Source: an uncultured Bacilli bacterium (GTDB taxonomy: Bacteria > Bacillota_I > Bacilli_A > RFN20 > CAG-288). From it: 64,000 bases of DNA. Location of the stretch: contig CALVYN010000002.1 of assembly GCA_944372245.1 (NCBI GenBank), forward strand, positions 4,065-68,064, written 5' to 3'. A program made the translations under genes and the position numbers. Shown one piece after another: positions 17,831 through 40,027 of the stretch (the first letter of the stretch is position 1; each line of letters opens with the position of its first letter). The notes below the pieces were generated by a model. It saw nothing but the letters and a program-made list of their open reading frames with translations. It searched no databases and was not told the DNA's origin.

Positions 17831-17875
17831 TCTCTTACCTCTCTCCGGGTCGAAGTCGAGGTAGACTTCTTCTCG

Positions 17876-17960
17876 TGGTGCCGCCGGAGGGGCTTGAACC
17901 CTCACGAGTTGCCTCACAGGATCCTAAGTCCTGCGTGTATGCCAATTTCACCACGGCGGC
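17876..17960 (-). tRNA. tRNA-Leu (anticodon UAG), type II
   Basis: Reverse complement: acceptor GCCGCCG/CGGCGGC, anticodon loop CUUAGGA, long variable arm, CCA encoded. Confidence 0.8.
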
Positions 17961-18011
17961 AGCGAATAGCTATTTTACAACGGTTTTAGCGTGTATAATC
18001 ACATACCGGTC

Positions 18012-18103
18012 TGGAGAAGTACCCAAGTGGTTGAAGGGACCGGTTTCGAAAACCGGAAGTAGGTGCAAGCCTAGCAGGGGTTCAAATCCCCTCTTCTCCG
18101 CCA
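18012..18103 (+). tRNA. tRNA-Ser (anticodon CGA), type II
   Basis: Acceptor GGAGAAG/CUUCUCC, anticodon loop UUCGAAA, long variable arm, T-loop UUCAAAU, CCA encoded; upstream TTTACA...gtgTATAAT promoter-like sequence. Confidence 0.85.
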
Positions 18104-23986: not shown

Positions 23987-24639
23987 CTATAGCCCTCCAT
24001 TCTTCCTTGGTATCTGCCGTTACCAAGGAGATTATCAGAATCATAGGATATAAGAGGAAGAGATGTAGGATGAAAGGCAAAAGATAAAATAAAAATTTCA
24101 ATAAAGAAACTAGTGGTATAAAACTAGCATTTTCACAAAAAGAAAATGGATTGTATATTGAGATGAAGCATTCCTTCGGCATTTCTAATTGTGCTGCTGC
24201 TATAGGAGAAAAACTAACGAGATAGCTATTTGATGGTCAGCTCTATTTTGCATGAACGATTCAATTTGCTGTCCGTTTTGCGGGGACTTTAGCCCTTCTA
24301 GGCGAACATTAATCCAGTTGAGAGACGATTGCTGATCCTTCGAGAAAGGGCTGCTTCTGAACGATTTCTCACATGAATGAGAAATGTTTCATTTTCGATA
24401 TACTTCGACTTTCTAATATTAAAAGAAAGTTAATTTGTATTTCAGGAAGCGTTTTCAGGTCGGATAAATACAACTTTGAGGATACAAGTTATATCGGTTT
24501 GTTGATTTATCCGCTTTCTAATTGGGTTTTTGAGGGTTCCGGTCATTGGATTTCTCATCGATAAAATGTAAGAATATGCAAGTCCGAAGTTATCCTTATT
24601 TTTCATTTCTCCAAAATTCTTTAGCTCGAGGAGGTATGT

Positions 24640-25347
24640 GTGGCAAACAATAAGCACAGAAGCACCTGGATGATTGCGGGTGCAGTCGGAGCGGGCCTAG
24701 CCGTGGTCGGCGTCGGCCTCTGCTTCTTCTTCTTGGCCAACGGTGAGCTGGCCGATAGAAACGATGGCAACGTCAACGTCGATCCCGTAGAGGGTCCCTA
24801 TGGGACGCTCACCGCGACCATGGCGGATAGCTCCATCGCCCTGCTGGGCACCGGTGACAACAGCGGATACGTGGATATCGATGGCGTGGAAGACCTCAGG
24901 ACCAGCGTGGTCTTCAACCTCTCGGTCGCGCCCGCCTTCATCGATGAGAACCTCAACTCGACCATCCGGTTCGACATCACGCTCAAGAGCGCCCTCCCCA
25001 CCGTGGAGGCCGCAGGCGATCTGATTGGCCAGCGCGAGGGCGAGAGCTGGACCTACATCGAGTTTGAGCCGGTCAGCCTGACCATTGCGACCGACGACTT
25101 CGTCTACTCTTCCGAGACCGGGCGCTTCCTCTACGAGTCGCCCGAGGTCGGCTGCTCGTTCGTCTGGGGCAGCTTCTTCAACGGGATGAATCCCCAGCTG
25201 TACTACAACGGACTCTTCGCTGGCGAGTCGCCCGCCCTCGTGCCCAACCCCGATAACTTCCGTCTCGTCACCGATGAGCTCAATGCGATGGAGAAGGCGT
25301 TCGCGGGCTCGCAGATCGATCTGCAGCTGGCGCTGTCGACCCTCTAG
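24640..25347 (+). CDS. Secreted protein with N-terminal signal anchor; candidate SipW-cognate (TasA/camelysin-like architecture)
   Basis: N-terminal TM WMIAGAVGAGLAVVGVGLCFFFLANGELAD followed by beta-rich about 200-aa body; GTG start per ORF track; placed directly upstream of S26B signal peptidase gene. Confidence 0.5.
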   Translation: MANNKHRSTWMIAGAVGAGLAVVGVGLCFFFLANGELADRNDGNVNVDPVEGPYGTLTATMADSSIALLGTGDNSGYVDIDGVEDLRTSVVFNLSVAPAFIDENLNSTIRFDITLKSALPTVEAAGDLIGQREGESWTYIEFEPVSLTIATDDFVYSSETGRFLYESPEVGCSFVWGSFFNGMNPQLYYNGLFAGESPALVPNPDNFRLVTDELNAMEKAFAGSQIDLQLALSTL

Positions 25348-25359
25348 GAGGTATAGGAA

Positions 25360-26040
25360 ATGTCTAAGAGATTCACTCGGACCGGTCTGACCACCGGTCT
25401 GATCTGCACCGGCCTGGCCCTGGGCTGCGTGGGTGTCGGCGTGTCGGCTTGGCAGGTGGGCGATTACTTTGTCTCCCCCACCGATGTCGGTGGCATCACC
25501 GTCGGCGCGGAGGATGCTGAGGGCAACTTCCTCGAGATCGAGAGCGCCCGCGTGGTCGACGACCAGATCCGCTTCGGCACCAAGGTCAACGACCTGGGCG
25601 AGATCACCGCGAACGCGGATACCGAGGATCTGGACTCCTCGTTCACCTTCGACTTTGTCGCTGCGACCGGCGACCTGAGCGGCCTGTTCCTGTCGGTCAC
25701 CGGCACCTTCTCGGAAAACCTCGTCCAGGCGGCCGAGAAGGGCTATATCGTCCTGCCCTTCGAGCCCGGAACCAACTTCAACATTCTGAGCTTCGACAGC
25801 GAGGGCCAGGCCAGCCCCATCGACGGCGAGCACTACACCACCGCGCTCGAGGGTGAGACGGTGACCGTGACCATGAGCTTCGGCTGGGGCGCTAAGTTCG
25901 CCGGCCACAACCCCGTCGAGGATGAGATCTACTTCGGTCTCGATGGAGCGATCGACAGCTTCACCCAGGCCTACCTGGCGGTCGGCGAGCTCCACGATCT
26001 CGTGAGCGACGCCAGCATCCACCTGGAGATTGGAAGGTAG
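25360..26040 (+). CDS. Secreted protein paralogous in architecture to upstream gene; candidate SipW-cognate substrate
   Basis: N-terminal GLTTGLICTGLALGCVGVGVSAWQVGDYFVSPTD resembles SipW-cognate signal peptides (G-rich hydrophobic core then A-x-F/Y-x-x-D). Confidence 0.5.
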   Translation: MSKRFTRTGLTTGLICTGLALGCVGVGVSAWQVGDYFVSPTDVGGITVGAEDAEGNFLEIESARVVDDQIRFGTKVNDLGEITANADTEDLDSSFTFDFVAATGDLSGLFLSVTGTFSENLVQAAEKGYIVLPFEPGTNFNILSFDSEGQASPIDGEHYTTALEGETVTVTMSFGWGAKFAGHNPVEDEIYFGLDGAIDSFTQAYLAVGELHDLVSDASIHLEIGR

Positions 26041-26044
26041 CTTC

Positions 26045-26977
26045 ATGACCAACTCACAGATCATCATCACCTGCGTCGCGGCCTTCTGCCTCGTTGTGAT
26101 CTGCGCTCTCTTCACCGTCACGATCATCCGCTACAAGCGCGCGACCAGCGAGGCGATCACCAAGGGTGCGGACGATCCCGCCCTGGTGGCGAAGGCGCTG
26201 CGCCGCTCGAAGAAGCAGCGGATCGTCATCCGCGTGTTCTCCGCGCTGTGGAAGGCGCTGGTCGCCCTGATTCTGCTCGCGGCGATCTGCTTCATGGCCG
26301 CCTCGATCTACACCCGGGTCTCGGGCAACCGCTTCGCCTTTGGCGACCAGGCCTATCTGGTCATCTCCTCCGACTCCATGTCGAGCAAGAACCCCAACAA
26401 TACCTATCTGAGCGACGAGGAGCTCCAGTCCCAGTACGACCTGGACAATCAGTTCTCCGCCTACGACACCATCGGCATCCAGCAGTATGACTCGGCGGCC
26501 GATGTGAAGCTCTACGACGTCGTCGCCTACGAGGCGACCAGCGGCCAGACCGTCGTCCACCGCATCGTGGACACCGTCGAGGAGGACGGCCAGGTCGTGG
26601 GCTACATCACCCGCGGCGACACCAACAACATCGACGACACCGGCGTCTTCTATACCTCCTACCTCACCTACGATGACATCATCGGCTACTTCGACGGGAA
26701 GGTCATCCCCGTCCTTGGCTATCCCGTGGTCTTCCTCCAGTCCCCCGCCGGCATCATGACCCTGGTCGCCCTGGCCTACTGCTTCATCACCTACGACGTG
26801 GCCGCCAGCCGCCTGGACAAGAGCCGCAAGGCCCGCACCAGCTTCGTCCTGAGCGCTCTGCACATCACCCCCGAGCAGCTCAGGGACGGCAGCTATAACG
26901 ATCTCGAGTCCGTCGTCATCGACGGCCGCGAATACAGTTTCACCGGCGGTCAGCTGACGCCCCGGGAGGAGGCCTAG
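26045..26977 (+). CDS. sipW: Type I signal peptidase of the archaeal/ER (SipW/Sec11, S26B) type with extra N-terminal TM segments and C-terminal TM anchor
   Basis: Ser box VISSDSMS, His box TVVHRIV, and diagnostic RGDTNNIDD (GDNN box) which distinguishes SipW-type from bacterial P-type SPases; GGAAGG RBS before ATG 26045. Confidence 0.7.
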   Translation: MTNSQIIITCVAAFCLVVICALFTVTIIRYKRATSEAITKGADDPALVAKALRRSKKQRIVIRVFSALWKALVALILLAAICFMAASIYTRVSGNRFAFGDQAYLVISSDSMSSKNPNNTYLSDEELQSQYDLDNQFSAYDTIGIQQYDSAADVKLYDVVAYEATSGQTVVHRIVDTVEEDGQVVGYITRGDTNNIDDTGVFYTSYLTYDDIIGYFDGKVIPVLGYPVVFLQSPAGIMTLVALAYCFITYDVAASRLDKSRKARTSFVLSALHITPEQLRDGSYNDLESVVIDGREYSFTGGQLTPREEA

Positions 26978-26980
26978 TTC

Positions 26981-27745
26981 ATGGAGAACGCCAACGTCAC
27001 CCTCGAGAACACGCCCGCTCTCGCCATCAGCGAGCTGACCAAGGCCTACGGCAAGCAGGTCGTCATCCGCGACCTCAACCTGACCGTGGAGCGCGGTGAG
27101 GTCTTCGGCTTCATCGGCCGCAACGGCACCGGCAAGTCGACCACCATCGGCTGCATGGTCGGCCTCAAGCCCTTCAAGAAGGGTCGCATCCTTATCGGCG
27201 GCCACGACATCCAGCAGGACACCATCGAGGCCAAGAAGCTTCTGGGCTACGTGCCCAGCGAGCCGGCCTGCTACGAGATGATGACCGGCCGCGAGTTCCT
27301 CTCCTTCATCGCCTCGGCCTTCGGTCTGACCGCCGAGGCCTTCGACACCCGCATCCAGGAGCTGGTCGCGCGCTTCGACTTCAACCCCATCGATCTCGAC
27401 CGCCGCATCGGCCACTACTCCCTGGGTATGAAGCAGAAGATCTCGCTGATGTCCGCCCTGGTCCACGATCCCCTGCTCTGGGTCCTCGACGAGCCCACCA
27501 TCGGTCTGGACGCCCCCGCGACCGCCGAGCTGGCTCACACCCTGCGCCAGCAGGCCAAGGAGGGCCGCTCGGTCTTCATCACCTCCCACTCCATCGAGTT
27601 CGTCGCCCGCTGCTGCGACCGGGTCGCCATCCTGGCCCAGGAGAATGTGGCTCGCATCGTCGACCTGAGGGGCGGGGAGACCTTCGCCGATCTCAAGCTC
27701 GCCTACGACACCATCTGCCTGCATCATTCGGAGGCTCAGGCATGA
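26981..27745 (+). CDS. ABC transporter ATP-binding protein (ABC-2 type)
   Basis: Walker A GRNGTGKST, signature variant YSLGMKQK, Walker B LWVLDEPTIGLD, H-loop SHS. Confidence 0.85.
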   Translation: MENANVTLENTPALAISELTKAYGKQVVIRDLNLTVERGEVFGFIGRNGTGKSTTIGCMVGLKPFKKGRILIGGHDIQQDTIEAKKLLGYVPSEPACYEMMTGREFLSFIASAFGLTAEAFDTRIQELVARFDFNPIDLDRRIGHYSLGMKQKISLMSALVHDPLLWVLDEPTIGLDAPATAELAHTLRQQAKEGRSVFITSHSIEFVARCCDRVAILAQENVARIVDLRGGETFADLKLAYDTICLHHSEAQA

Positions 27746-29340
27746 GGGTGCTGGGACTGGTCAAGAAGGAGGTGGTCAGCCACTTCCGGCGCGTCGACGC
27801 GTCGGTGTGGACCACCTTCTCCAGCGCCGCGCTGACCGTCCTGGGGGCGGTCATCATCGCGGCTCTCATCGGCTACGTCACCTATACCGTCGACAGCAAG
27901 ATGCTCGAGGCGGCCTCCTCCTCGGCGCCCTACCTGATCGCGCTGTTCCTCTTCATCTTCGCCGCCTTCAACTGCGTGGACGGGGCGCTCAGGGCGCGGC
28001 GCACCTTCTATTCCGAGAGCGATCGCGAGATCGTGAACCCTCTGCCTTACAAGCCTTATGAGATAGTTCTCTCAAAGACCATCTTCCTCTGGCTCTACCA
28101 GATTGCTGAAGGCGCACTCCTGTCTCTGCCCGTGCTCCTGGTCTTCGGTATCAACCGCGACTACGGGGCGGGCTACTACGTCGTCTCCGTCATCTACTGC
28201 CTGGTGATCCCCACCATGGTGACCGGTGCGAGCCTCATCCTCTCCGTCGTCTTCCAGTGGGTCTACCGCTGGATGCGCGGGCACGACCTGATCCAGTTCC
28301 TGCTGGCGGCGGTCGTGGTCGTGGGCCTGTGCTTCATCTACGCCCTCTTCCTGCGCCTCTTCCTGGCCTCGCTCTCGCAGGAGAGCGACATCTCCGGCGC
28401 GCTGCCCGGCGCCTTCATGGAGAACCTGGAGCACATCACCTCCTTCATGCCTCCCGTCTACCACTTCATCGACCTGTGGATCAGCGGGGCGCACCAGTTC
28501 GTCAACATCATGGTGCTGCTCCTGTGCGGCCTGGCGCTGCCGGCGGGCGGATACTTCCTCTCCCTCTGGTACTACCAGAGGTGGGACCGCGGTCTGGGCA
28601 GCCGGATCAAGGCGAGAAGGAACCGCACCTATCCCGCCTTCACCAACCTGCTGCGCAAGGAGCTGATCCTCCTGTTCAAGGATTCGCCCTCGATCTTCTC
28701 CTACACCTCGCTGCTGATCATGATGCCCTTCCTGGGCTATGTGGTCATCTCCGCCTTCAACGCCATCCTGGGCACCAACATGTCGGTCGTCCTCAACTAC
28801 TATCCCCTGCTGACCGAGATCATCGATGTCGCTCTGATCCTCCTCTTCGTCTCGATCATCAACTCCTCCGCCTCCCTCTCGCTGACCCGCGAGGGCCGGG
28901 GCCTGGCGGTCTATAAGACCCTGCCCGTCTCCCCCTGGATGACCATCGCCTCGAAGATCAGCGTCCCCTCCGCCCTCTCGGCCTTCTCCCTGATCGTGAC
29001 CCTGGCCGTCCTGGGCGGTCTGGGCGAGCTCTCGGGCGCGAGCATCGGCGTCTGCCTGGGCGGCGGTCTCCTCCTGATCCTGGCCCAGAACTTCCTGGGC
29101 ATCGAGCTGGATGTCTACGACCGGGGCTACGGGCGCGTGCGCTTGTCGTTCCTGGCCTCGATCTGCTCGATCCTCATCCCTCTGGTGGCGAGCCTGGGTG
29201 GCTTCCTGGGCATCTTCCTGGGCTGGAGCACCGCGCTCATCTACGCCTTCATCTTCCTGGTCCTGGCCGCCTTCTCCGCCATCCCGCTGATCCTGACCTG
29301 CCGCCTCAGGAGGCTCTTTGTGAATATGGAGGCCATGTAG
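27742..29340 (+). CDS. Large polytopic ABC-2-type permease (532 aa, about 12 TM, internally duplicated)
   Basis: Start overlaps ATPase stop by 4 nt; highly hydrophobic throughout. Confidence 0.7.
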   Translation: MRVLGLVKKEVVSHFRRVDASVWTTFSSAALTVLGAVIIAALIGYVTYTVDSKMLEAASSSAPYLIALFLFIFAAFNCVDGALRARRTFYSESDREIVNPLPYKPYEIVLSKTIFLWLYQIAEGALLSLPVLLVFGINRDYGAGYYVVSVIYCLVIPTMVTGASLILSVVFQWVYRWMRGHDLIQFLLAAVVVVGLCFIYALFLRLFLASLSQESDISGALPGAFMENLEHITSFMPPVYHFIDLWISGAHQFVNIMVLLLCGLALPAGGYFLSLWYYQRWDRGLGSRIKARRNRTYPAFTNLLRKELILLFKDSPSIFSYTSLLIMMPFLGYVVISAFNAILGTNMSVVLNYYPLLTEIIDVALILLFVSIINSSASLSLTREGRGLAVYKTLPVSPWMTIASKISVPSALSAFSLIVTLAVLGGLGELSGASIGVCLGGGLLLILAQNFLGIELDVYDRGYGRVRLSFLASICSILIPLVASLGGFLGIFLGWSTALIYAFIFLVLAAFSAIPLILTCRLRRLFVNMEAM

Positions 29341-29341
29341 C

Positions 29342-31762
29342 ATGGGAAAGAAGAAGACTCTGATATTCCTGCTGATCGTGCCTCTCCTGGTGGCTCTGAT
29401 CTCCTATGTCGGCTACGTCGTGCTCCACCGCCAGATCCGCGTCGACCTGAGCGATATCCGCTGGAGCTACAGCCCCAACCAGGGCTTCCGCATCGGCGAT
29501 GACTACAGACTCGAGGCCGAGGGCGTCTACAACGAGGACCTGACCCTAGCCGAGGGCAACGAGCTCGTCTGGAGCCTTCCCGCCGACTGCGAGGATGCCA
29601 CCATCGAGCAGCGCGACGACGGCTACTACCTGATCCCCGAGACCGAGGGCTCGGCCGTGGTCACCTGCGCTAACGCCAAGGGCACCATCTCCAAGAGCTT
29701 CAACGCTGTCTTCTACGCCACCGGCGCCATCGTCATCAACCCCGTCAACAACGTCTCCGGCGCCTCGGTCGACGGCCAGCTGGACTACGGCCAGTACGAG
29801 TTCGCCTACCAGGGCAGCGGCGCCCCGACCAAGGTCGCCTCGACCCTCGAGCTGGACGTGTCGATCCTGGGCGACTTCGATAACCCCGCCATCGCCTTTG
29901 ACACCTCCGACAACCTCGCCTACGACGAGGAGACCGCGAGCCTGAAGGTCCTCGGCCCCGGCCTGGCGACGGTCTCTGCCCACCTGGTCGACTATCCCTC
30001 CATCGCCACCACCTACGAGTTCAACGTCGTCGAGGGCGGCGTGAACGTGCGGAGCTACACCGACCTGCTCTACTGCACCAACTGGGCTGAGACGCCCTGC
30101 CCCGCGGTCCTCCAGGTCAACCTGGGCTCCCTCAGGGACACCTACGTCCGCAACGAGGATGGTGCCTACTCCCAGGAGCTGATCTCCGAGAACACCGCCC
30201 TGTTTGGAAACTACGACTTCACCAGCCGGTCGTTCTCCTTCGAGGATGAGATTTACACCTTTGAGACGACCTACTTCACCGAGTTCATCGAGCAGTACAA
30301 CGCCGCCCGCCCCAACGGGGCCGTCCCCATCTCCACCGAGGTCCTGGCCGGCATCCACCTGCAGGCGGACCTCTACGGCAACGGCTTCTACATCAACATG
30401 AGCAACCTGGCCTACCCCAACCACGGCAAGGTGGATCAGGCGACCGGCAAGCTGACCCCGGGCGCGGAGGACCTCTTTCAGGGTCCCCTCCCCTTCATGG
30501 GTCTGGGCGACCTGGCCAACTACCCCATCGTCTCCGCCTACGGCCAGGACAACTGCGGCATCTACATCGACACGGATGGCGTGACCATCGACGATGTCAC
30601 CATCCGCAACGTCGACGATGTCGACAACCTCTACAACCTCACCTACACCGGCACGGTCCTGGATGTCGAGGCGAGGGATGTGACCGTCCAGAACTCGATT
30701 CTGGCTAACGGCAAGAACATCGTCCGCGCCTTCTCCGCCGACGGCTTGACCATCGACAACTGCACCCTCAGAAACGCGGCCGAGTTCCTCCTCCACGCCG
30801 GCTCCAACCGCGCCAACACCTACGACGACACCAAGACTTTCTCCTACTTCGACGGGAAGACCTCGACCGAAGTCAGCTTCGAGGACTTCTTCGAGGGGAC
30901 GGAGGGCGCCACCCTGGAATCCGCCTACAACAGCATCCTGCGTGGGACCATCAGCGACGTCGCCGGCATCAAGAGGTCGATGGAGTCGGTCCAGGAGGGC
31001 CTGGACAACACCGCCGGCATGATCGCAGCCGACGGGATGGTCAACTACGACGCCCACATCACCGTCAGGGATACCAGCTTCGACACCTCGGGCGTCTACT
31101 CGATCGCCCTGGACTCGGCCTTCAACGGCGGCTACCTCTACAACGGCGCCCCCTCCATGGTCCAGACGGTCTTCGATCAGTTCCAGGTCGACATCCTGCC
31201 CCCCGACCGGGTCGGACACACCTCCTACCCCGTCGAGCTCACCCTCGAGGGCGACACGAGGTTCTACGACTTCAAGGACATCGAGGAGGCGGATATCTCG
31301 ACCCTGATCGAGGAGAACATCACCGCCCTGCTCCAGCAGATCGGCATGCTCGACCCCTCGATCAGCGTCAACATCGACGACTACTTCCCCCTCAAGGACG
31401 TCATCCGCCAGCAGGCGTCCCAGCGCGGCCTGCTCTATCAGGCGGACGGCCACGACTACATCAACACCCAGGTCGCCTGGTACGGCGGCGGCGTCAACCT
31501 GTCCACCCTGGTGGACGAGAGGGAGTCGGTCCATCTCGACTCCTCCGAGGTCTACGATCTGGACTTCGTCACCGGGGCCCTGGAGTACGTCCCCGACCCC
31601 AGCATCGGCAGCCAGGCCGGCTCACTGATCCAGGTCCTGCAGCGCGCGGTGTTCATGGTCACCGGTGTCCACCCCTTCCGCACCATCACCAACGGCCCGG
31701 TGACTCCGGGTCAGGTCCCCCCGCTGTTCGGGGAGAGCGCCCCCGCTCCGTCGGGGCGCTAG
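29342..31762 (+). CDS. Membrane-anchored extracellular protein with right-handed parallel beta-helix repeats (pectin-lyase fold; candidate polysaccharide-active enzyme or adhesin)
   Basis: N-terminal signal anchor LIFLLIVPLLVALISYVGYVVL; repeats of the form VTIDDVTIRNV / VTVQNSILANGKNIVRAF / LTIDNCTLRNAAEF typical of PbH1 beta-helix turns. Confidence 0.6.
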   Translation: MGKKKTLIFLLIVPLLVALISYVGYVVLHRQIRVDLSDIRWSYSPNQGFRIGDDYRLEAEGVYNEDLTLAEGNELVWSLPADCEDATIEQRDDGYYLIPETEGSAVVTCANAKGTISKSFNAVFYATGAIVINPVNNVSGASVDGQLDYGQYEFAYQGSGAPTKVASTLELDVSILGDFDNPAIAFDTSDNLAYDEETASLKVLGPGLATVSAHLVDYPSIATTYEFNVVEGGVNVRSYTDLLYCTNWAETPCPAVLQVNLGSLRDTYVRNEDGAYSQELISENTALFGNYDFTSRSFSFEDEIYTFETTYFTEFIEQYNAARPNGAVPISTEVLAGIHLQADLYGNGFYINMSNLAYPNHGKVDQATGKLTPGAEDLFQGPLPFMGLGDLANYPIVSAYGQDNCGIYIDTDGVTIDDVTIRNVDDVDNLYNLTYTGTVLDVEARDVTVQNSILANGKNIVRAFSADGLTIDNCTLRNAAEFLLHAGSNRANTYDDTKTFSYFDGKTSTEVSFEDFFEGTEGATLESAYNSILRGTISDVAGIKRSMESVQEGLDNTAGMIAADGMVNYDAHITVRDTSFDTSGVYSIALDSAFNGGYLYNGAPSMVQTVFDQFQVDILPPDRVGHTSYPVELTLEGDTRFYDFKDIEEADISTLIEENITALLQQIGMLDPSISVNIDDYFPLKDVIRQQASQRGLLYQADGHDYINTQVAWYGGGVNLSTLVDERESVHLDSSEVYDLDFVTGALEYVPDPSIGSQAGSLIQVLQRAVFMVTGVHPFRTITNGPVTPGQVPPLFGESAPAPSGR

Positions 31763-31795
31763 TCGAGACGAAGCTCAAGAGATAAGGAGGCAGAT

Positions 31796-32524
31796 ATGGT
31801 TAAGATGAGAATGGCTCTGATCGTGGGGTTAGCCGCCCTGGCCATCGGCAGCGCGGGCACGGCCGCGTTCATCTTCGGCAGCCGCAAGGCCGTCCAGGGC
31901 AACGTGGGCTTCGATGCGGATTCGGGCAGCTACGACACCGACGTCCTGCGCCCGATCGGCCTGCCCGAGAGCGTGACCTACGTCGCGGATTCGGCCCGGG
32001 CCTCCACGGTCGCTGACGGCGGCTACGAGACTGTCGCCGACCTGAACCTGGGAGCGGACAGCCCCATCCCCGAGACCGACCAGTCCGCCTTCTTCGTGAA
32101 GGCGAGCTTCGGCTATGACCCGCAGAAGGCTTCCGCCTGGATCGAGAGGAACTGCCACACTTTCAGCTGGCTGTACGCCTCGCTGGTCCCCGCGGATGCT
32201 TCGGCGTTCGCAAAGAACTTCGCCAGCGCGGAGGCGGCGGCCTATCTGGTCTATACCGGCACCGAGGTCGCCCCGGCCTACGGCTCCGGTGTGGCGATTG
32301 CTCCGCTCGGTACGCTGACCGACGGCGATCGGACGGGTCTGGGTTTCGGCGAGGTGTTCTACGAGGGAACGGACCTCGCTCAGTTCTTCCAGCTGGGCAT
32401 CAGCGCGGATCAGAAGTTCGATCTGATCTTCGCCCTGCCTGTCGGCGAGGAGTTCAACCTCGAAGAGGTCAAGACGTTGGATTTCAGCATCGGTCTGAAT
32501 GTCAGGGAGGTGAAGTATGAATAA
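31796..32524 (+). CDS. Small secreted protein; candidate SipW-cognate substrate
   Basis: N-terminus MALIVGLAALAIGSAGTAAFIFGS resembles SipW-cognate signal (GT-A-x-F-x-F). Confidence 0.5.
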   Translation: MVKMRMALIVGLAALAIGSAGTAAFIFGSRKAVQGNVGFDADSGSYDTDVLRPIGLPESVTYVADSARASTVADGGYETVADLNLGADSPIPETDQSAFFVKASFGYDPQKASAWIERNCHTFSWLYASLVPADASAFAKNFASAEAAAYLVYTGTEVAPAYGSGVAIAPLGTLTDGDRTGLGFGEVFYEGTDLAQFFQLGISADQKFDLIFALPVGEEFNLEEVKTLDFSIGLNVREVKYE

Positions 32525-35500
32525 GAGGATTCTCATCAATTCGCTGGTCGGCGGCACCGTCGTGGCGGGCCTGTCCCTGCCCCTAGCGCACGCCAGCTTT
32601 TCATTTGCCGACTACGGCGTCCTGGAGGATGGCACCATCTCCTCGGTCGCTCCTGCAGAGGGCTACGACTACACCGTGACCTTCGCTGAGGGCAACGCGA
32701 CCTCCAGCGATTCGAAGACCACCACCCTGCCCGAGGCAATCGGCTTCCAGGAGGGGGCGGAGTTCACCCCGGAGGCCATCGAGACCACTCCCGCAAAAGA
32801 GGGTTATGCCTTCGATGGCTACTACACCGATGCCTCCTGCACCACGGCCTACAACTTCTACACCAGCGTCGATTCCGACATGACCCTGTACGTAGCCTTC
32901 ACTCCTCTGGACAGCTATTCCTATACCGATAGTTCCCAGAACGTCTTCACGGCCAGCAGCAGCCTAGATCTGAAGGAGGACACCGTCGATATCGGCGGGA
33001 TCAAGGTCTTCAAGTACAGCTCCTCGGCTAAGAATACCGGCGATGGCCAGTACACCCTGAACCTCGCCACCACCGCTCTGGACGACGGTGCGACCTACTC
33101 GCTGCAGGTCTATGGTAAAGATAAAGAAGGAAGGGGGGATGTTTGGAACTCTAGCGTCTTTCTGCCTAGCCAGAATGACGGACGGGTCATTCGCTCTAAC
33201 TCCAAGTTTTTTACCCTTGTCCTCCAGGATGATCTGGTCATCTCCAACGGGTCGACTCTCCAGATTGGCGGCTGTTCCTCCCTGGTCGGCAATGGTATCT
33301 ACTGCGATCTCGCTAGCGATAACTTCGCTCTGGATCTCAACGGACACAATCTGATCGTCGAGCCCGGTTCGAACCTTGAGTTATATGGCCTTCTGACCGA
33401 TTCCACCAAGAAAGGTATGGTCGTGGTCGATAGCGGCGCTTACATCAAGGTGAAGATGTCGGTCTACAACGGTGGAGGTTCGCAGCTGTTGACCGCCAGT
33501 TCCTACTATGTGAATCCCTTCCCCTTCTATGGCTTCCCTGCTCTGGATGCGAATATCCGCTTCTACGCCGGCGCGGAGATGACCGCAGTCATGTCGGCGG
33601 GAACCAGCAGCCAGGGTGTGGTGGTCGATGTGCCTTTCATCGGCAAACCCCTGCCTGCGGATTCGGATGAGACCGCAGCCATGCTGATCCTAGAGTCTAA
33701 AGATGCCAATTCCCCCGGGTACCTCGACTTCCGCCACAATATGATTCCTGCTCCCCGCGGAAGCTTGAATGCCTACCGGGTGTGGGACACCCAGTATCGC
33801 GAGTACTTCTCCTTCCACGACTGCCTCATGACACTCGGCTCGCTCGCAATGAAAGTATCAATGGCTTCGATCGACTCGGCCGAGTTCCTCTGGGAGCTGC
33901 CGGGCAACAGCGATATCACCCTGGATAACTGCGATCTCTACATCGACCACCAGTTCCAGCTCAATCCCGGTCTCAACTTCTATTCCGATAAGGATTCCAA
34001 CATCATCTTCCGCTGCAATTCTGTCGACCCCTGCGGCATCGTCGCTCCTTCCAAGCTCTTCTCCACGGCCGTGGCCGACAACATCTCCAACCTCGGCTCC
34101 ACCACCGCCGGTCACATCATGGCCGATCTCAGGGGCAAGGAGCAGTCGCTGATCACGGTCATGGGCGACATCAGGTTCGAGTATCCCGAGGGGAGTGCCA
34201 AGGTTGATCAGGTCACCTTCCTTGGAGGATATTTCAACCTGTCGGATCGGGCTCTCGCCTCCGTTCTCGCTGCGGCTGAGAAGGGGCAGGTCACGCTCAT
34301 GTCCAAGGGTCAGCTCGCCAACTTCCACTACGTCAACTCCTGGAGTAGCAGATGGGGTGTGGCCAGCTACTACGTCTATCCCCTCATCGCCAATGGCGTC
34401 GCCTACACCAATGACCATCTGGATGGCGGTCTCAAACCTTTGGATGGAAAGATCGGTTCGGGCATCTACACCGATGGGACGAATTACTATTCCTACTTCA
34501 ATGTGGATAACGAGCGCCCCGACGACTTCGGTGAGGGAAACTTCGAGCTCAGGAAGATCGACTACGATGCGACGACTCACTCCTACACCATCGCCGGCGA
34601 CGACAGCGGACAGAAGTATGCCTACTTCGCTGGTATCTCCGTCCCTGTCTATCTGTTCCAGAAGGATGGCAAGAGCTGGGTCACGATGTCCGATATGCTG
34701 ATAGACAGTGCGGCTTCGAGCTACGACTTTGTCATTACCTACGACGAGGCGAGCGGGGGCTATCTTCTGGCTAAGACACAGACCTACGATTCTGGCGTCG
34801 AAGATATTTCCATCGCTGTGACTCTCAAAGCGGGTAACAACTGTGCAGCGGTGGCTGACGTTCAGCTGACCGAAAAGATCGGTGCCACTTTGAACCTGAC
34901 CCAACTGGCTTCTAAGTATGGTTTCACAACCACTAGTTCTGAGGCTAAGAACAATTTTGAGGTCGAGGTTACTGGCGGCGAGACGACGTCTATCAGTGAG
35001 ACAACTCTCGTGATCGACCTCAATCTCGGTCTGGAGATTCTGGAGAGCAAGAGCATCACCATCACCTTCAATTATGGTGGCAGCTCTGGCGGCGGAGGCG
35101 ATGGCTGCATCTTTGCGGATGCTCCTGTCCTGATGGCCGACGGCTCGACCAAGCGGGCCGATGAGGTCAAGGTCGGCGATATCGCTCTGGCCTGGGACTT
35201 CGAGACGGGCCGGGTTAAGGCGAACCGCGTCTTCTTCTACGAGATGTACGAGCAGGACATCTTCGCTGTGTGGATCCAGCTGGCGAACGGCGAGGAGCTG
35301 CGCATCGCCTGCCCTCACGCGCTCTTCGACTACAGCGAGCGAAAGTTCTTCACCGTCACCACCGAGAACTACACCTCGATCGTCGGCCGCGAGATCGCCA
35401 TCTTCAACGGCGTGGACAGCGGCCTGTCCTCCACTAGGATCGTCTCGGTCAGGGGACACCGGGAAAGGCGTGTCGTTGGAAACATCGAGACCGCACACAC

Positions 35501-35777
35501 TCTGAACTTCTTCTGCGGTGGGGCGCTCAACGCCGATGCTGTCTACGTGGCTAAGTTGCCCTTCGAGGTCGGTGCGGACTTTGCCTACGACCGGAAGGAT
35601 GTGGCCGAGAGCATCAGCAGGTACGGCCTGACCAAGTACGAGGTGTTCAAGGACTACATGAATTTCGATAACTTCGACTGTCTCAACGGCCAGTACGTCT
35701 CCATCTGTATCGGTAAAGGGCTCTTTACGCTCGACTACCTGTTTGAGATTGCCAAGTACTATCTTGGCGGCAAGTAG
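32517..35777 (+). CDS. Giant secreted protein (1086 aa) with C-terminal Gly/Ser linker, Hint/intein-like autoprocessing domain and about 85-aa C-terminal tail
   Basis: N-terminal signal LVGGTVVAGLSLPLAHASFSFADYG; C-terminus GGSSGGGGDG-CIFADAPVLMADGS...VKVGDIAL (Hint block A starting with Cys) ... RRVVGNIETAHTLNFF (TxxH / intein block F-like). Confidence 0.65.
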   Translation: MNKRILINSLVGGTVVAGLSLPLAHASFSFADYGVLEDGTISSVAPAEGYDYTVTFAEGNATSSDSKTTTLPEAIGFQEGAEFTPEAIETTPAKEGYAFDGYYTDASCTTAYNFYTSVDSDMTLYVAFTPLDSYSYTDSSQNVFTASSSLDLKEDTVDIGGIKVFKYSSSAKNTGDGQYTLNLATTALDDGATYSLQVYGKDKEGRGDVWNSSVFLPSQNDGRVIRSNSKFFTLVLQDDLVISNGSTLQIGGCSSLVGNGIYCDLASDNFALDLNGHNLIVEPGSNLELYGLLTDSTKKGMVVVDSGAYIKVKMSVYNGGGSQLLTASSYYVNPFPFYGFPALDANIRFYAGAEMTAVMSAGTSSQGVVVDVPFIGKPLPADSDETAAMLILESKDANSPGYLDFRHNMIPAPRGSLNAYRVWDTQYREYFSFHDCLMTLGSLAMKVSMASIDSAEFLWELPGNSDITLDNCDLYIDHQFQLNPGLNFYSDKDSNIIFRCNSVDPCGIVAPSKLFSTAVADNISNLGSTTAGHIMADLRGKEQSLITVMGDIRFEYPEGSAKVDQVTFLGGYFNLSDRALASVLAAAEKGQVTLMSKGQLANFHYVNSWSSRWGVASYYVYPLIANGVAYTNDHLDGGLKPLDGKIGSGIYTDGTNYYSYFNVDNERPDDFGEGNFELRKIDYDATTHSYTIAGDDSGQKYAYFAGISVPVYLFQKDGKSWVTMSDMLIDSAASSYDFVITYDEASGGYLLAKTQTYDSGVEDISIAVTLKAGNNCAAVADVQLTEKIGATLNLTQLASKYGFTTTSSEAKNNFEVEVTGGETTSISETTLVIDLNLGLEILESKSITITFNYGGSSGGGGDGCIFADAPVLMADGSTKRADEVKVGDIALAWDFETGRVKANRVFFYEMYEQDIFAVWIQLANGEELRIACPHALFDYSERKFFTVTTENYTSIVGREIAIFNGVDSGLSSTRIVSVRGHRERRVVGNIETAHTLNFFCGGALNADAVYVAKLPFEVGADFAYDRKDVAESISRYGLTKYEVFKDYMNFDNFDCLNGQYVSICIGKGLFTLDYLFEIAKYYLGGK

Positions 35778-35855
35778 ATAACCTAGCTCGTTTCGCGGTC
35801 CGATGACCGCTTCTCTTCATGTAGAATTTTCTGCTGCACGCATCTGGAGGTCATC

Positions 35856-36680
35856 ATGTCATACAGCGAGAGAATCCCCCTGAGGGGAACTAGGAACACC
35901 CGCGATCTAGGAGGCTATATCGGCCTGGAGGGAAAGAAGGTGAAGACGGGGCTCATCTACCGCTCCGACTCCCTCTCCTTCCTCGAGGAGGACGATGTCG
36001 CCTTTCTAGCGGAGCAGCTCCAGCTCCGCTATGACATCGACCTCAGGAGCGAGCAGGAGACCGAGGAGAAGCCCGACGTGGCCATCCCCGGCTGCCGCCT
36101 GGTTCTCATCCCCATCACCTCCAAGATTCTCATGGGTTCGACCGTGCAGCCTCCCGCCTTTGCCAAGAATGACCCTGAGATCAGCTGGCACTATCGCCGC
36201 CTCTACTCCCTCCATCCCGACGGCGATGCCATCGAGGGGATGAAGAACCTCTATCTGCACTACGTGGAGATGGAGTCCAATCGGTGTGCCTACACCGAGT
36301 TCCTCAACCTGGTGGCAGATGCCGAGGGTCCTCTGATCTTCCACTGCGCCGACGGCAAGGACCGCACCGGCATGGCGGCGGCTTACATCCTCTCCATCCT
36401 CGGCGTCGATCGAGAGACAATCCTGGATGACTACGAGGCCAGCGCGGGTTACCTGGTGGGAAAGTGCCAGGAGCGGGCCGAGAAGCTCAGGGCGGCCGGC
36501 ATCGCCGACGAGCGGCTGATTCGGAACATGTGCCTGCTAGCCAGCGTCAAGCGCTGCTGGCTGGAGGCAGCCCTGGAGCGGATCGACAACGCCTACGGCG
36601 GAATGGACCGCTACCTGACTGAGATTCTCCACATCGATGAGGGTGTCAAACAGCGGATTCGCCAGAAGTATCTCGACTGA
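35856..36680 (+). CDS. Protein-tyrosine phosphatase (CX5R, Y_phosphatase3-like family)
   Basis: Active-site HCADGKDRTG (C-x5-R P-loop). Confidence 0.75.
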   Translation: MSYSERIPLRGTRNTRDLGGYIGLEGKKVKTGLIYRSDSLSFLEEDDVAFLAEQLQLRYDIDLRSEQETEEKPDVAIPGCRLVLIPITSKILMGSTVQPPAFAKNDPEISWHYRRLYSLHPDGDAIEGMKNLYLHYVEMESNRCAYTEFLNLVADAEGPLIFHCADGKDRTGMAAAYILSILGVDRETILDDYEASAGYLVGKCQERAEKLRAAGIADERLIRNMCLLASVKRCWLEAALERIDNAYGGMDRYLTEILHIDEGVKQRIRQKYLD

Positions 36681-36726
36681 GACTAAAGCTATATATATAA
36701 ATTATCTCTCTGAGCCTATTAGCCTA

Positions 36727-36766
36727 AGCAACCTTTACCTGAAAAGCAAAGGTTGCTTATTTTTAT
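36727..36766 (+). terminator. Rho-independent terminator (aagcaaccttt ... aaaggttgctt + attttta)
   Basis: 11-bp inverted repeat followed by T-rich run after phosphatase gene. Confidence 0.65.
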
Positions 36767-36829
36767 TCGAAAGAAATGCAATCTTGCCAATAAAATATGA
36801 AGCTGAACTGTATAAGGGGTGGAGGCAGA

Positions 36830-37348
36830 ATGTCCAGCGATGAGATACTGAGTGCTCTGCGCGCCATGAAGAGCGGTGATATGGACGGCTTCGAGCCGTT
36901 CTACGAGCAGACCAAGCGCATGGTCTTCTTCGCAGCCAAGGCGGTCCTGAAGGACAACGCCCGCTCCGAGGATGTCATGCAGGATGTCTATATCCGTTTC
37001 CTGGAGATGCTCGACCGCATCGAGGAGGACCGCGGGGTCGTCGGTCTGCTGGTCAAGATGGCGCGCAATCTCGCTCTCAATATCCTCGAGCGCGAGCAGC
37101 GCTCCGTCGAGCTGGACGAGAACCTCCACGGGTCCATCTCCGCGACTGACAATCTGGGTTCCGACCTCTTTGAGCGCATGCGCAAGCTCCTGGATGACGA
37201 TGAGTACGAAATCGTGATCCTGCACGTCGTGGATGAGCTCAAGCACCGGGAGATTGCCGAGATGATGTCGCTTCCGCTGGGGACTGTGACCTGGAAGTAC
37301 AACCGTGCCATCGCCAAGCTGCAGAAAGGATTGGGTGATCTGAGATGA
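36830..37348 (+). CDS. ECF-family RNA polymerase sigma factor (sigma-70 regions 2 and 4)
   Basis: Region 2 DVMQDVYIRFLE, region 4 HTH REIAEMMSLPLGTVTWKYNRAIAKLQ; start at MSSDE. Confidence 0.8.
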   Translation: MSSDEILSALRAMKSGDMDGFEPFYEQTKRMVFFAAKAVLKDNARSEDVMQDVYIRFLEMLDRIEEDRGVVGLLVKMARNLALNILEREQRSVELDENLHGSISATDNLGSDLFERMRKLLDDDEYEIVILHVVDELKHREIAEMMSLPLGTVTWKYNRAIAKLQKGLGDLR

Positions 37349-38394
37349 ACGAGAACGACATCGAAAGGCTCATCCGCGAGGAGAGTCAGCGGGTGGAGAT
37401 CAAGACCACCGCCGCCTCGATCCTCGAGCGCTACCGCATCGAGGAGAAGGTGAAGAAGACGTCGAAGAAACCCTGGTATCGTCGCCCCTCCTTCATGGTG
37501 GGCGCCCCGGCTTTCGGCATCGTGGCGGTTCTCTCCATCGGTCTCGGCACCTATTTCGGCCTCGGCGCGGGCGGAGGCGGCCAACCCTCGGTCGGCAGCA
37601 GCGGAGGCGGCCAGGTCGTGATTCCTCTGGGCGACACCAGGATTCAGGCGGCCTCCTATGAGGTTCTAGCCGGCATGAGCTTCATCGGCTCAACGGGCAG
37701 CGATACTCAGGCCGCAGCTGTCAGGCGTGCCCGGCAGGTCAGCGAGACGCAGTTTGAGCAGATCTGTGCCGCCTTCGATAGCCACTACGGGATGATTGCC
37801 ACCTTGGAGTCCTACTCCGCTAGCGGCTTCGTCTACACCCCTATCGCTTCCGACGACCCCTCGATGCCCTACTGCATCCAGATCGCCGACTTCAAGTTCT
37901 ACTACGATGCACCGCTGCAGGACGAGGATGAGACGCTGATCCAGGGCTACACCACCACTCTGGATGGCCAGCGCCTGCAGACTGTCCGCATCGAGAGCGA
38001 GCAGGAGTATGAGCCCGGCGAGAGTGAGAGCGAGATCGAGGTCACGCTGATCAGCGCCGACGGAACCTCGGTGACCATCGCTCAGACCAACGAGAGCGAG
38101 GGCAGCGAGTCCGAGGATGAGTTCTCCCTCATCCAGCGCGATGCCCGCGGCCGCGAGCTGACCGAGATTAGCTTCCAGCTGGAGAGCGAGCACGGCCAGA
38201 CCGAGAAGACCTTCGACATCGAGGTGTCCGAAGGGCGAGAGCTCGAGTGGTCCTACACCATCTTCGATGAGACTTCCACGAGCATGAAGCTCGCCTTCGA
38301 GGGCGAGGATGGGGAGATCTCCTATCGCAATCCTATCCTGGTCGAGCTCGACCCTCGGGTCTACACCTATGGCGAGCTGGAGTATCGGCCCTAG
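37345..38394 (+). CDS. Putative membrane-anchored anti-sigma factor (single TM, acidic Glu-rich extracytoplasmic domain)
   Basis: 4-nt overlap with sigma-factor stop; TM AFGIVAVLSIGLGTYFGL; no enzymatic motif. Confidence 0.5.
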   Translation: MNENDIERLIREESQRVEIKTTAASILERYRIEEKVKKTSKKPWYRRPSFMVGAPAFGIVAVLSIGLGTYFGLGAGGGGQPSVGSSGGGQVVIPLGDTRIQAASYEVLAGMSFIGSTGSDTQAAAVRRARQVSETQFEQICAAFDSHYGMIATLESYSASGFVYTPIASDDPSMPYCIQIADFKFYYDAPLQDEDETLIQGYTTTLDGQRLQTVRIESEQEYEPGESESEIEVTLISADGTSVTIAQTNESEGSESEDEFSLIQRDARGRELTEISFQLESEHGQTEKTFDIEVSEGRELEWSYTIFDETSTSMKLAFEGEDGEISYRNPILVELDPRVYTYGELEYRP

Positions 38395-39151: not shown

Positions 39152-40027
39152 ATGAGAAACAAGATCATCGCCGCCATCGCCCTGCTGGGCACCACCCTGT
39201 CCCTGGCCAGCTGCAAGGGAACCGGAAGCAACCCTAACAGCTCTGGCACCAACGGTGACCTGACCGCTCAGGCCGAGTCTCAGGTCGCTTTCCAGATGGT
39301 GACCGCCTCCTCCCTCCTCCCCAGCCTCGGCATCGTCAATCGCGCCATCGACCCCGCCCACCAGAATATCCTCGACCGCGCTGAGCAGATCGAGCTGTTC
39401 TTCCTCAACACCGCCGACTCCATCAAGGTGACCGCTCAGGCTTCCGACCGCCCCGAGTACGAGCACATGGAGGTCGTCACCTACCTCGACGATGTGGATG
39501 AGACCAGTCGGATGACCTTCTACTACAACTCCTTCAACCACACCGAGCACGACGACTGGGACGAGATGGAGTCCGAATCCTTCATGAATGGCATCGTCCT
39601 CGTCGGTGACCAGGAGCTCCCCTTCATCGCGGAGAGCGAGTCCGAGAGCGAGGGCTGGGACGAGGAGGAGTCTTCTCTCGAGGTGAAGATCTTCACCGGC
39701 GAGACCCGCCGCAGCTTCGTCTCCGCCAAGCGCGAGATCGAGATAGAGGACTTCGAGCGCGAGGAGAGCTATGTCTACACCGCGGTGGAGAATGGCCGCG
39801 TGGTGGAGTCCTACGAGCTGGAGCGGGAGAATGACGACGGAGCCGAAGAGACCGAGATCAACATCGTCGAGAACGGTCAGATCTATGCGGTCAAGTTCCT
39901 CACCCGCCGCGGCGTCACCTACATCCAGATCGCCTCGCGCGGCCCTCAGGGTCGCGACTGGGCCACCTACGAGCGGGTGGAGAACGCCGACGGCACCTAC
40001 ACCTACAACCAGGTCCAGACCTGGTAG
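39152..40027 (+). CDS. Lipoprotein with acidic Glu-rich domain
   Basis: Lipobox LSLASC (Cys20) after signal peptide; C-terminal composition resembles extracytoplasmic domain of the neighbouring anti-sigma factor. Confidence 0.6.
   Translation: MRNKIIAAIALLGTTLSLASCKGTGSNPNSSGTNGDLTAQAESQVAFQMVTASSLLPSLGIVNRAIDPAHQNILDRAEQIELFFLNTADSIKVTAQASDRPEYEHMEVVTYLDDVDETSRMTFYYNSFNHTEHDDWDEMESESFMNGIVLVGDQELPFIAESESESEGWDEEESSLEVKIFTGETRRSFVSAKREIEIEDFEREESYVYTAVENGRVVESYELERENDDGAEETEINIVENGQIYAVKFLTRRGVTYIQIASRGPQGRDWATYERVENADGTYTYNQVQTW

Follow-up and report, generated by a model that had tools for sequence, protein, structure and literature searches.

In a 64,000-nucleotide window of contig CALVYN010000002.1, which comes from an uncultured Bacilli bacterium, eight adjoining genes bring together a signal peptidase (SPase) of the archaeal and endoplasmic reticulum (ER) type, family S26B, a set of secreted proteins with a common leader, an ATP-binding cassette (ABC) transporter and a membrane-anchored beta-helix protein. 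Three of the secreted proteins are small and are called A, B and C here; the fourth is 1086 residues long and contains a Flg_new domain and a Hint-like module. The operon probably builds or services a cell-surface structure. The account that we favour, and that may well be right, is that of a dedicated secretion-and-processing operon, in which the S26B peptidase, its cognate substrates and an ABC/beta-helix envelope module would act together in surface assembly. Dedicated SipW-type peptidases are known mainly from the biofilm fibres formed by TasA, CalY and BsaA. The locus probably presents this theme of SipW plus cognate substrate in a new form, directed to surface or matrix assembly with an ABC/beta-helix module. 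We found no description of the operon in the literature searched.

As evidenced by its profile matches and its closest solved structures, the peptidase is a genuine S26B enzyme of an atypical kind, for which the sequence predicts cleavage activity. This is in accordance with the preliminary description of the locus, which had placed it with the SipW-like rather than the ordinary bacterial (P-type) enzymes. The match to TIGR02228, the archaeal/ER-type model of NCBIfam, is marginal at 54.1 bits against a cutoff of 51.85, and its alignment is limited to profile positions 56-151 because an insert follows the Ser box. The Bacillus SipW equivalog NF046067 scores 56.4 bits, below its cutoff of 190; the protein is SipW-like and not an ortholog of Bacillus SipW. 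These two models were its only NCBIfam matches, no P-type NCBIfam model was matched, and Pfam gave no match at all, with none of its S24/S26 models scoring at E ≤ 0.1. Using a profile of 19 homologs, the best relatives in the Protein Data Bank (PDB) are human SEC11C (3.7e-8) and SEC11A (1.1e-7), whereas the bacterial P-type SPase I (4nv4) scores 0.23 with the same profile. The alignment with SEC11A/C passes through the IVHRV and GDNNxxDD boxes and assigns the role of general base to a His, not a Lys, in the HR box aligned with IVHRV. The GDNN, HR and S-x-S-M boxes reported earlier are all present, as RGDTNNIDD, VVHRIV and SDSM (SDSMSSKN), and the residues that underlie them, S111/M112, H172/R173 and G191/D192, are invariant in the 19 homologs, with D198 nearly so (at least 90%). 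The SDSM of the window differs from the family consensus SGSMSEKN, in which SGSM is written as in Sec11 and SipW.

The peptidase has three transmembrane (TM) segments. An extra N-terminal TM segment is followed by a basic, conserved cytoplasmic loop that contains the conserved motif G-x-[ED]-D. About 23 residues are inserted behind the Ser box, and towards the C-terminus come a further TM segment and a cytoplasmic tail. The ATG at 26045 that had been proposed as its start is supported by gene callers and by all homologs, while the TTG at 26030 is the mechanical start of the open reading frame (ORF) and not that of the peptidase. A search of 5.8 billion clusters returned 57 homologs, every one from metagenomes or metagenome-assembled genomes (MAGs), and one partial homolog bears the PGAP label 'signal peptidase I'.

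The leader common to A, B, C and the 1086-residue protein consists of a Lys/Arg-rich start, a Gly-rich hydrophobic core of about 14-19 residues and an end of the form G/A-x-[A/S/C]↓x-[W/F], where the arrow marks the predicted cleavage site. The predicted sites are G26-L27-C28↓F29 in A (leader residues 1-28), G27-V28-S29↓A30-W31 in B, G21-T22-A23↓A24-F25 in C (context GTA↓AFIFG) and A24-H25-A26↓S27-F28 in the large protein (context AHA↓SFSF). A regular expression that asks for a basic N-terminus followed by 14 or more hydrophobic residues and by the motif matched 4 of the 184 ORFs of the window, exactly these four, with a pattern that was defined post hoc. The unusual N-terminus that the preliminary description had seen in the four proteins is real as a common leader, but its motif A-x-F/Y-x-F/D is better replaced by the form given above, placed at the end of the hydrophobic core.

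Leader statistics were taken from 134 distinct paralogs of A and B from 48 sources, namely the window and 47 related loci. The consensus at the end of the hydrophobic core is [VI]-[SA]-L-x-[TGS]-[VTI]-G/A-F-[A/S]-x-W-[IV]-[IV]-G. Position -3 is G or A in 100% of the paralogs, position -2 is F in 87%, position -1 is A or S in 99% and position +2 is W in 93%; to have small residues at both -3 and -1 is the classical rule for SPases. The information content is 2.18 bits per column in the leader compared with 1.21 in the body, and the mature N-terminus is conserved as well, reading x-W/F-[IV]-[IVF]-G and continuing into an I-x-V-x-V-D strand. The 134 paralogs, whose genes neighbour that of a SipW-type peptidase, have leaders with a small-aromatic-small end and an aromatic residue behind it (G/A-F-[A/S]↓x-W); the corresponding sites in the window are GLC↓FF, GVS↓AW, GTA↓AF and AHA↓SF. 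The same leader occurs on a large accessory protein of the related locus L005 (x964, AFA↓SFFDYG) and on an 850-residue Hint protein of locus L039 (AVGQS↓TWITF), and small proteins encoded to either side of distant peptidase homologs have the leader GGVYATW(S/E)YA (GGVYA↓TWSYA). In 10 of 99 family members the basic n-region of leaders of the A type (K-S-K-R-K-W) weakly matched the KxYKxGKxW signal-peptide model; these matches fall short of significance (best E 0.047) and are probably compositional.

A and B are distant paralogs with 23% identity. The tandem small genes found at related loci belong to the same family as A and B, which is recognizable by the invariant C-terminal motif F-x-W-G-x-x-F-x-x-x-N-P, and a profile search found more than 785 members, none of them named and none with a Pfam domain. 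A and B themselves have no match in Pfam or NCBIfam. C has 4 relatives among 1.84 billion representatives, and profile-profile comparison with hhalign relates it to the A/B family with a probability of 90% and an E of 1.4e-6, in an alignment confined to 65 N-terminal columns, which are the leader and the first strand. Full membership of C in the family was rejected, as both the family hidden Markov model (HMM) and single-sequence hhalign miss it.

AlphaFold2 (AF2) models A as a beta-sandwich that has helices at its C-terminus, with a mean predicted local distance difference test score (pLDDT) of 72 and core blocks of 75-92. Residues 26-51 have a pLDDT below 50; they cover the first ~22 mature residues including the I-x-V-x-V-D strand, which is not confidently packed. 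In this monomer model an unplaced N-terminal strand is suggestive of a use between subunits. The fold is not the one expected from the preliminary description, which had proposed a relationship to TasA and camelysin: 0 of 99 family members matched PF12389 (Peptidase_M73) at E ≤ 1, the family profile found nothing relevant in the PDB at E ≤ 10, and Foldseek with the model of A gave a best E of 0.04 and TM-scores of at most 0.25, with no match to the jellyrolls of TasA (5OF1) or AbpA (7UEG) and TasA unlisted in both structure searches. Type IV pilins were also rejected. No A24 prepilin peptidase or PilB/PilC is encoded in any locus, the leader motif lies after and not before the hydrophobic core, and the matches to Pilin_N (4 of 99 members at E ≥ 0.085) are noise.

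The ATPase and permease were taken previously for an ABC-2 ATPase and a 12-TM permease, of which the ATPase and the 12 TM segments hold, while the permease falls just short of its family model. For the ATPase, which matches PF00005 and the drrA subfamily model TIGR01188, the closest solved structures are the second nucleotide-binding domain of ABCA3 (2e-60) and those of ABCA7, ABCA4 and ABCA1, followed by TM0544 and then by NosF. The permease scores 25.9 bits with PF01061 (ABC2_membrane), whose cutoff is 26.9; its 12 TM segments are predicted from hydropathy, its orthologs match 12TM_1 or ABC_tran_2 weakly, and it has no sequence relative in the PDB. The 806-residue protein encoded next has 103 full-length homologs, all unnamed. 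Its model (pLDDT 89.5, predicted TM-score 0.89) contains a TM helix at residues 4-29, beta-sandwich domains at about residues 38-236, a right-handed parallel beta-helix and a C-terminal domain of helices and beta-strands, so the earlier view of a membrane-anchored parallel beta-helix protein is upheld by a confident model. NosD, a beta-helix protein docked on NosFY, is among its structural matches. Two residues of the 806-residue protein, D403 and R462, are invariant.

The 1086-residue protein comprises Flg_new (residues 52-125), a conserved body (about residues 229-719), a Gly/Ser linker (GGSSGGGGDG) and, from Cys864 onwards, a Hint-like module that runs to the C-terminus (nucleotides 35106-35774). 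The giant Hint protein described before is thus present in outline, but the module starts at Cys864 rather than at residue 862, stays below the Pfam cutoff (PF01079, 21.3-23.8 bits against 29.7) and is not constant in related loci; parts of the body and of the module reappear in a few of them. Three segments were compared, those of the window (35106-35777), L003 (18721-19401) and L039 (1100-3652). Cys864 is kept in all three. The module contains a block-A-like C-x-x-A-x-x-x-x-x-M-A-D-G-[ST], and the block-B His is found in the window (CPH) and in L039. In the L003 ortholog autoprocessing may be lost because this His is replaced (SQS). Judged from these residues, self-cleavage between Gly863 and Cys864 is plausible for the window protein. 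Similar to Hedgehog/Hog and bacterial intein-like (BIL) Hint domains, the module is C-terminal, has a conserved first Cys after a Gly-rich linker and a block A, and a tail of about 80 residues comes after the Hint core, in the place that the adduct-recognition region has in Hog. Unlike them, it scores below the Pfam thresholds, is without the block-B His in the L003 ortholog and has no evident C-terminal Asn-Cys/Ser splicing junction.

Conservation of the gene neighbourhood, which had been named as a check on the locus, proved strong. Small paralogs are followed by the peptidase, the ABC ATPase, the 12-TM permease and the beta-helix protein of about 810 residues in an order that is intact in 37 of 44 species-level GTDB loci; six of the remaining seven are ended by contig ends and one is rearranged. 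In all 37 of these loci, and in L003, L005 and L008, the ATPase, permease and beta-helix genes are contiguous. L003 and L004 encode a peptidase 50% identical to that of the window within an identical eight-gene operon. Where the peptidase is 33-42% identical (L005, L008 and the 37 GTDB loci), the arrangement is 2-8 small paralogs, peptidase, y607, y474, ABC ATPase, permease, the ~810-residue beta-helix protein and a 375-residue lipoprotein with Flg_new. Here y607 has multiple TM segments as well as an AAA_5 domain, and y474 combines DUF2357 with a C-terminal zinc ribbon. The window has neither gene, and C and the Flg_new/Hint protein stand in for the lipoprotein, making it a reduced version of the operon.

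Small genes are found directly 5' of the peptidase gene wherever upstream sequence is available. The first is always of the A type (s1), and the one abutting the peptidase gene is of the B type (s5/s6) wherever it can be classified. We count this pattern of 2-8 tandem paralogs per locus, A-type first and B-type last, as subunit-like behaviour at the level of gene arrangement. More distant peptidase homologs (26-29% identity) lie in minimal units of small protein, peptidase and small protein. One such unit (L007:9220-11790, peptidase 26% identical, both small proteins with the GGVYATW(S/E)YA leader) sits as an insertion with a SpoIIGA(Peptidase_U4)/sigma-E-like pair on one side and a further sigma gene of the sporulation type on the other (flanks 7566-12692), a setting that hints at a link of one branch of the peptidase family to sporulation.

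The pair of AAA_5 and DUF2357 proteins, which is McrBC-like and membrane-bound, is encoded at L005:11080-14345 and L008:11122-14372 and at the same place in the 37 GTDB loci. The AAA_5 domain of y607 is McrB/MoxR-like and matches the PADLOC candidate PDC-M26A at 2e-37. The hosts of the related loci are labelled as Bacilli, Bacillales, Mollicutes or Acholeplasmatales MAGs and are of gut origin, and the loci span GC contents of 23% to 63%. The Bacilli-type operon is also present in records under the titles Bacteroides uniformis, Alistipes onderdonkii, Prevotella sp., Hallerella, Sodaliphilus, Paludibacteraceae, Lachnospiraceae and Oscillospiraceae. In the oddly titled 'cleanbin' series (L020, L025, L026, L033, L036, L038-L040, L042, L045, L046 and L050) the organism labels look unreliable because the loci are mutually 67-87% identical at the nucleotide level, except for L050, which shares only a short stretch.

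According to the dedicated-operon account, A, B, C and the large Flg_new/Hint protein would be exported in a Sec-dependent manner, and the membrane-embedded S26B peptidase would read and remove the cognate leader from these products of its own operon. Cleavage would expose the conserved hydrophobic N-terminus and the I-x-V-x-V-D strand that follows it. Beta-sandwich subunits of the A and B types, both obligatory classes, could then assemble at the surface into a fibre, sheath or matrix, in which the exposed N-terminal strand would provide the contacts from subunit to subunit. This would amount to a functional analogy to TasA and BsaA on a different fold. The translationally coupled ATPase, permease and beta-helix ectoprotein would form an envelope module that uses ATP, either for mechanical action outside the cell, as in NosDFY, or for ridding the membrane of hydrophobic leaders or subunits by clearance or extraction. 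The large protein may be an accessory adhesin or a tip, freed from its Hint module by autoproteolysis at the Gly863-Cys864 bond. The enzyme class, the common leader, the family relationships, the folds of two proteins and the conservation of the operon are results of the analysis; cleavage at the predicted bonds, polymerization, a physical ABC/beta-helix complex, Hint self-cleavage and the fibre or matrix role are inferred.

Compared with the operons tapA-sipW-tasA of B. subtilis and sipW-tasA-calY of B. cereus, the locus is alike in placing an S26B peptidase gene beside those of secreted substrates, in having paralogous candidates for major and minor subunits, and in a leader that ends in small-aromatic-small before an aromatic-rich mature N-terminus. 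The leaders of TasA (GGTWA↓AFND) and CalY (GGTFA↓FFSD) are parallel in arrangement to those of the locus. In contrast to the TasA operons, the substrates belong to another, unannotated family with neither a PF12389 nor a jellyroll match and with a leader that fails TIGR04088. The peptidases of the locus type, at 310-370 residues, also differ from those of the Bacillus SipW operons by the extra N-terminal TM segment, the cytoplasmic loop, the insert behind the Ser box and the cytoplasmic tail, and the ABC ATPase, the 12-TM permease and the 806-residue beta-helix protein, obligatory in this locus type, have no counterpart there. The statement in the preliminary description that the cluster is not a classical tapA-sipW-tasA operon is borne out.

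The SipW-dependent fibres of TasA and BsaA are built through an N-terminal donor strand (PMC9245690, PMC11580942). The sipW-bsaA-bsaB-bsaC operon of C. perfringens resembles the locus in encoding SipW together with several secreted proteins, including a large accessory protein, and its subunits have been proposed to polymerize on the surface of the membrane through exchange of N-terminal strands, prior to leader cleavage or around that time (PMC11580942). Nevertheless, BsaA and BsaB are remote TasA homologs that are locked by isopeptide bonds and whose secretion is aided by type IV pilus genes, while the locus has another fold, no type IV pilus genes and an ABC/beta-helix module. What it shares with NosDFY (PDB 7O0Y) is a gene for an extracytoplasmic protein with a right-handed beta-helix beside the genes of an ABC-2 pair. 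Unlike NosDFY, the window and the related loci are without nosZ, nosL or a copper context, the permease has its 12 TM segments in one chain, and the beta-helix protein has its own N-terminal TM anchor as well as extra beta-sandwich and C-terminal domains; the similarity to NosD is no better than that to other pectin-lyase-fold proteins. The peptidase would share the Ser-His(-Asp) chemistry of SEC11A/C and archaeal signal peptidase I, judging by the SGSM, HR and GDxN boxes, but it is a bacterial enzyme that stands alone, has additional TM segments and would be dedicated to substrates encoded in its operon.

Several observations weigh against the dedicated-operon account. Nine N-termini, those of A, B, C, the Hint protein and relatives among them, gave no match to TIGR04088 at E ≤ 10 with HMMER filters that could hide very weak ones; membership in the SipW-cognate signals, suggested earlier, is thus not supported, and the leader is a distinct variant of the SipW-cognate theme because its N-termini fail this model. 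With its mean pLDDT the model of A is only moderately confident, the resemblances to NosD and NosF are generic to their folds, and the best structural matches of the 806-residue protein are polysaccharide-active enzymes, which suggests a glycan-directed role. The window is without the AAA_5/DUF2357 pair that is common in relatives, so the ancestral machine was more complex than the model described above. Finally, it is just as possible that the hydrophobic segment is an anchor that stays uncleaved, whereas the account takes cleavage and polymerization as steps. In that alternative, A, B and C would be type II surface-coat proteins held by a signal-anchor that is uncleaved, or cleaved in some members only, and the peptidase would serve a subset of proteins such as the Flg_new/Hint protein with its standard A-H-A↓S site. 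The conservation of the leader is unusual for a disposable signal peptide, A of the window has at -1 a Cys, a poor SPase residue, many hosts are labelled Mollicutes or Acholeplasmatales, in which membrane-anchored surface proteins dominate, and AF2 shows the segment as an extended, low-confidence element. We still regard an anchored coat as unlikely, given that the small residues at -3 and -1 in 99-100% of the 134 paralogs are the signature of an SPase site, that a dedicated peptidase gene lies directly 3' in every locus and that a Gly-rich hydrophobic core of about 14-19 residues is typical of signal peptides.

The enzyme-like matches of the beta-helix protein could also be taken literally, as a glycan-directed complex. 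The beta-helix protein would then act as a lyase, hydrolase or epimerase, the ABC-2 pair would transport glycans or oligosaccharides and the small proteins would be carbohydrate-binding or accessory, all in the service of foraging on host or dietary glycans or of remodelling the cell's own capsule and with no protein fibre. This is doubtful, as about 45 operons contain no gene for a glycosyltransferase, polymerase, sugar-nucleotide enzyme or solute-binding protein, the beta-helix protein matches no Pfam domain of the CAZy type, the pectin-lyase fold also occurs in adhesins and NosD, and the dedicated S26B peptidase and its leader would be left unexplained. The exopolymer-assembly role put forward in the preliminary description is likewise without support because glycosyltransferases are absent from all loci. 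Far less probable is a polymorphic toxin or antagonism system, in which the large protein would be an effector freed by Hint, the ABC transporter would provide export or immunity and the small proteins would be accessory or immunity proteins. Hint domains do free C-terminal toxins in polymorphic toxin systems, the ATPase has a family-level resemblance to ATPases of lantibiotic protection and of phenol-soluble modulin export, and the AAA_5 protein of many relatives has the PADLOC match mentioned above. However, the Hint module of about 225 residues, including its tail, is conserved as a unit (40% identity between the window and L003), which argues against a variable toxin tip, and no toxin domain was found. 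Most operons encode the 375-residue lipoprotein instead of a Hint protein, what stays constant is the set of small proteins, peptidase, ABC pair and beta-helix protein, and the window proteins have no system-specific PADLOC matches beyond a generic ATPase. Scarcely credible, lastly, is a cluster for peptides that are synthesized ribosomally and modified post-translationally (RiPPs), with the SipW homolog removing leaders from modified peptides and the ABC transporter exporting them. SipW homologs do serve as leader peptidases in the RiPP clusters of linear polyphosphorylated peptides in Bacillota (PMC13381572), where the enzyme type has likewise been recruited to a leader-specific task, and an ABC exporter adjoins the peptidase here. 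There, short precursors are cut in a manner dependent on a RiPP recognition element (RRE), whereas the substrates of the locus are folded proteins of 226-1086 residues, and no precursor ORF, RRE, kinase, cyclase or other tailoring enzyme is encoded in any locus.

The dedicated-operon account also has a more far-reaching version, which we hold to be rather improbable: an unrecognised ATP-powered pathway for surface filaments or sheaths in uncultured gut Bacilli (Acholeplasmatales-like MAGs and allies, going by the names of the source records). Pilin-like subunits of a new fold would have their leader read by the S26B peptidase and would be extracted and polymerized via an ABCA/NosF-like transporter coupled to the beta-helix ectoprotein, with the membrane AAA+ ATPase joining in most lineages. 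If true, this filament-assembly machine would be unrelated to sortase, chaperone-usher, type IV or TasA systems.

Overall, the locus displays the logic of a private signal peptidase with a private leader on a different substrate family, the more than 785 proteins without name or Pfam domain, and the peptidase is genetically tied to an ABC transporter and a beta-helix ectoprotein in at least 37 species-level genomes of gut Bacilli. It is a second example, after NosDFY, of an ABC-2 transporter genetically locked to a beta-helix ectoprotein. The hosts are uncultured gut Bacilli whose surface biology is essentially unknown, and the operon is a candidate for a new surface structure relevant to colonization and host interaction. 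The leader motif G/A-F-[A/S]↓x-W-[IV]-[IV]-G offers a testable probe for further substrates, and the lineage of the window, being without the AAA+/DUF2357 pair, offers a defined minimal gene set.

The co-directional 11-kb cluster of the preliminary description was recovered in full, with all eight ORFs in place on the plus strand and close-packed (Table 1). Each of the eight genes is preceded by a GGAGG-like ribosome-binding site, and the junctions range from an 8-nucleotide overlap to a 33-nucleotide gap. The ATPase and permease genes overlap by 4 nucleotides and the permease and beta-helix genes are separated by 1 nucleotide. Rfam detected no riboswitch or other RNA element in the 450 nucleotides of the 5' region. 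We take 24640-35777 as the operon unit, with the phosphatase and sigma factor genes further downstream outside it, because a promoter-like site and a terminator-like hairpin bound the eight genes.

Table 1 Genes and candidate signals of the operon in window coordinates
Feature	Position	Strand	Evidence
Candidate promoter, sigma-70-like, 5' of the first gene	24130..24159	+	TTCACA-16-TATATT, 10/12 matches; weak evidence
Small secreted protein A, 235 residues, class-1 (A/s1 type)	24640..25347	+	family HMM E 4.5e-47
Small secreted protein B, 226 residues, class-2 (B/s5/s6 type)	25360..26040	+	family HMM E 2.9e-25
S26B (SipW/Sec11-type) signal peptidase, 310 residues	26045..26977	+	TIGR02228 54.1 bits; invariant boxes
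ABC ATPase, DrrA/ABCA/NosF-like (ABC-2)	26981..27745	+	ABC_tran (PF00005) 4.5e-26; drrA subfamily (TIGR01188) 2.9e-49
12-TM permease, 532 residues	27742..29340	+	12 hydropathy peaks; ABC2_membrane 25.9 bits
Type II membrane-anchored beta-helix ectoprotein, 806 residues	29342..31762	+	predicted structure
Small secreted protein C, 242 residues, lineage-specific	31796..32524	+	leader shared with A/B family
Large secreted protein, 1086 residues, Flg_new plus Hint-like module	32517..35777	+	Flg_new above Pfam threshold; Hint below
Terminator-like hairpin, operon end	35795..35810	+	GCGGTC-CGAT-GACCGC plus T-rich tail; 18 nucleotides past the stop codon of the last gene

In the window, an ENA metagenome scaffold, housekeeping genes surround the cluster, including those for MnmG, a class-V aminotransferase of the cysteine desulfurase type and carbamoyl-phosphate synthase/dihydroorotase, and they point to a chromosomal context. 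A prophage or viral origin was rejected on these flanks and on the lack of any relative of the peptidase in IMG/VR. Also rejected were a defence system, as the window proteins match PADLOC only generically as ATPases, and a sortase/LPXTG explanation, for which the genes and motifs are missing.

Beyond the terminator-like hairpin, the region 35856-38394 encodes a Y_phosphatase3 protein, a sigma factor of the extracytoplasmic function (ECF) type (Sigma70_r2/r4_2) and a putative anti-sigma factor of 349 residues with an acidic, Glu/Ser-rich C-terminal half. Their proposed role as regulators of the operon is not reflected in the comparison, as they are not conserved with it and the hairpin lies between. 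The ECF sigma/anti-sigma pair was found near no related locus. The phosphatase is common to L003 and L004 only, and these two also share an unrelated S66 peptidase on the other, upstream side, which points to ordinary chromosomal synteny rather than functional linkage. Further downstream (39152-40027) a predicted lipoprotein of 291 residues with an LASC lipobox and an acidic Glu/Ser-rich region has no Pfam match, and its similarity to the anti-sigma-like protein is not significant (BLASTP E 0.74).

Upstream of the operon, five tRNA genes lie at 14840-18100. Over about 18-22 kb of the window the GC content drops to 0.44-0.48, compared with about 0.6 elsewhere. This low-GC region may have been acquired; it contains an unannotated ORF of 373 residues (18448-19569) and, at 20060-21697, a fused ABC exporter.

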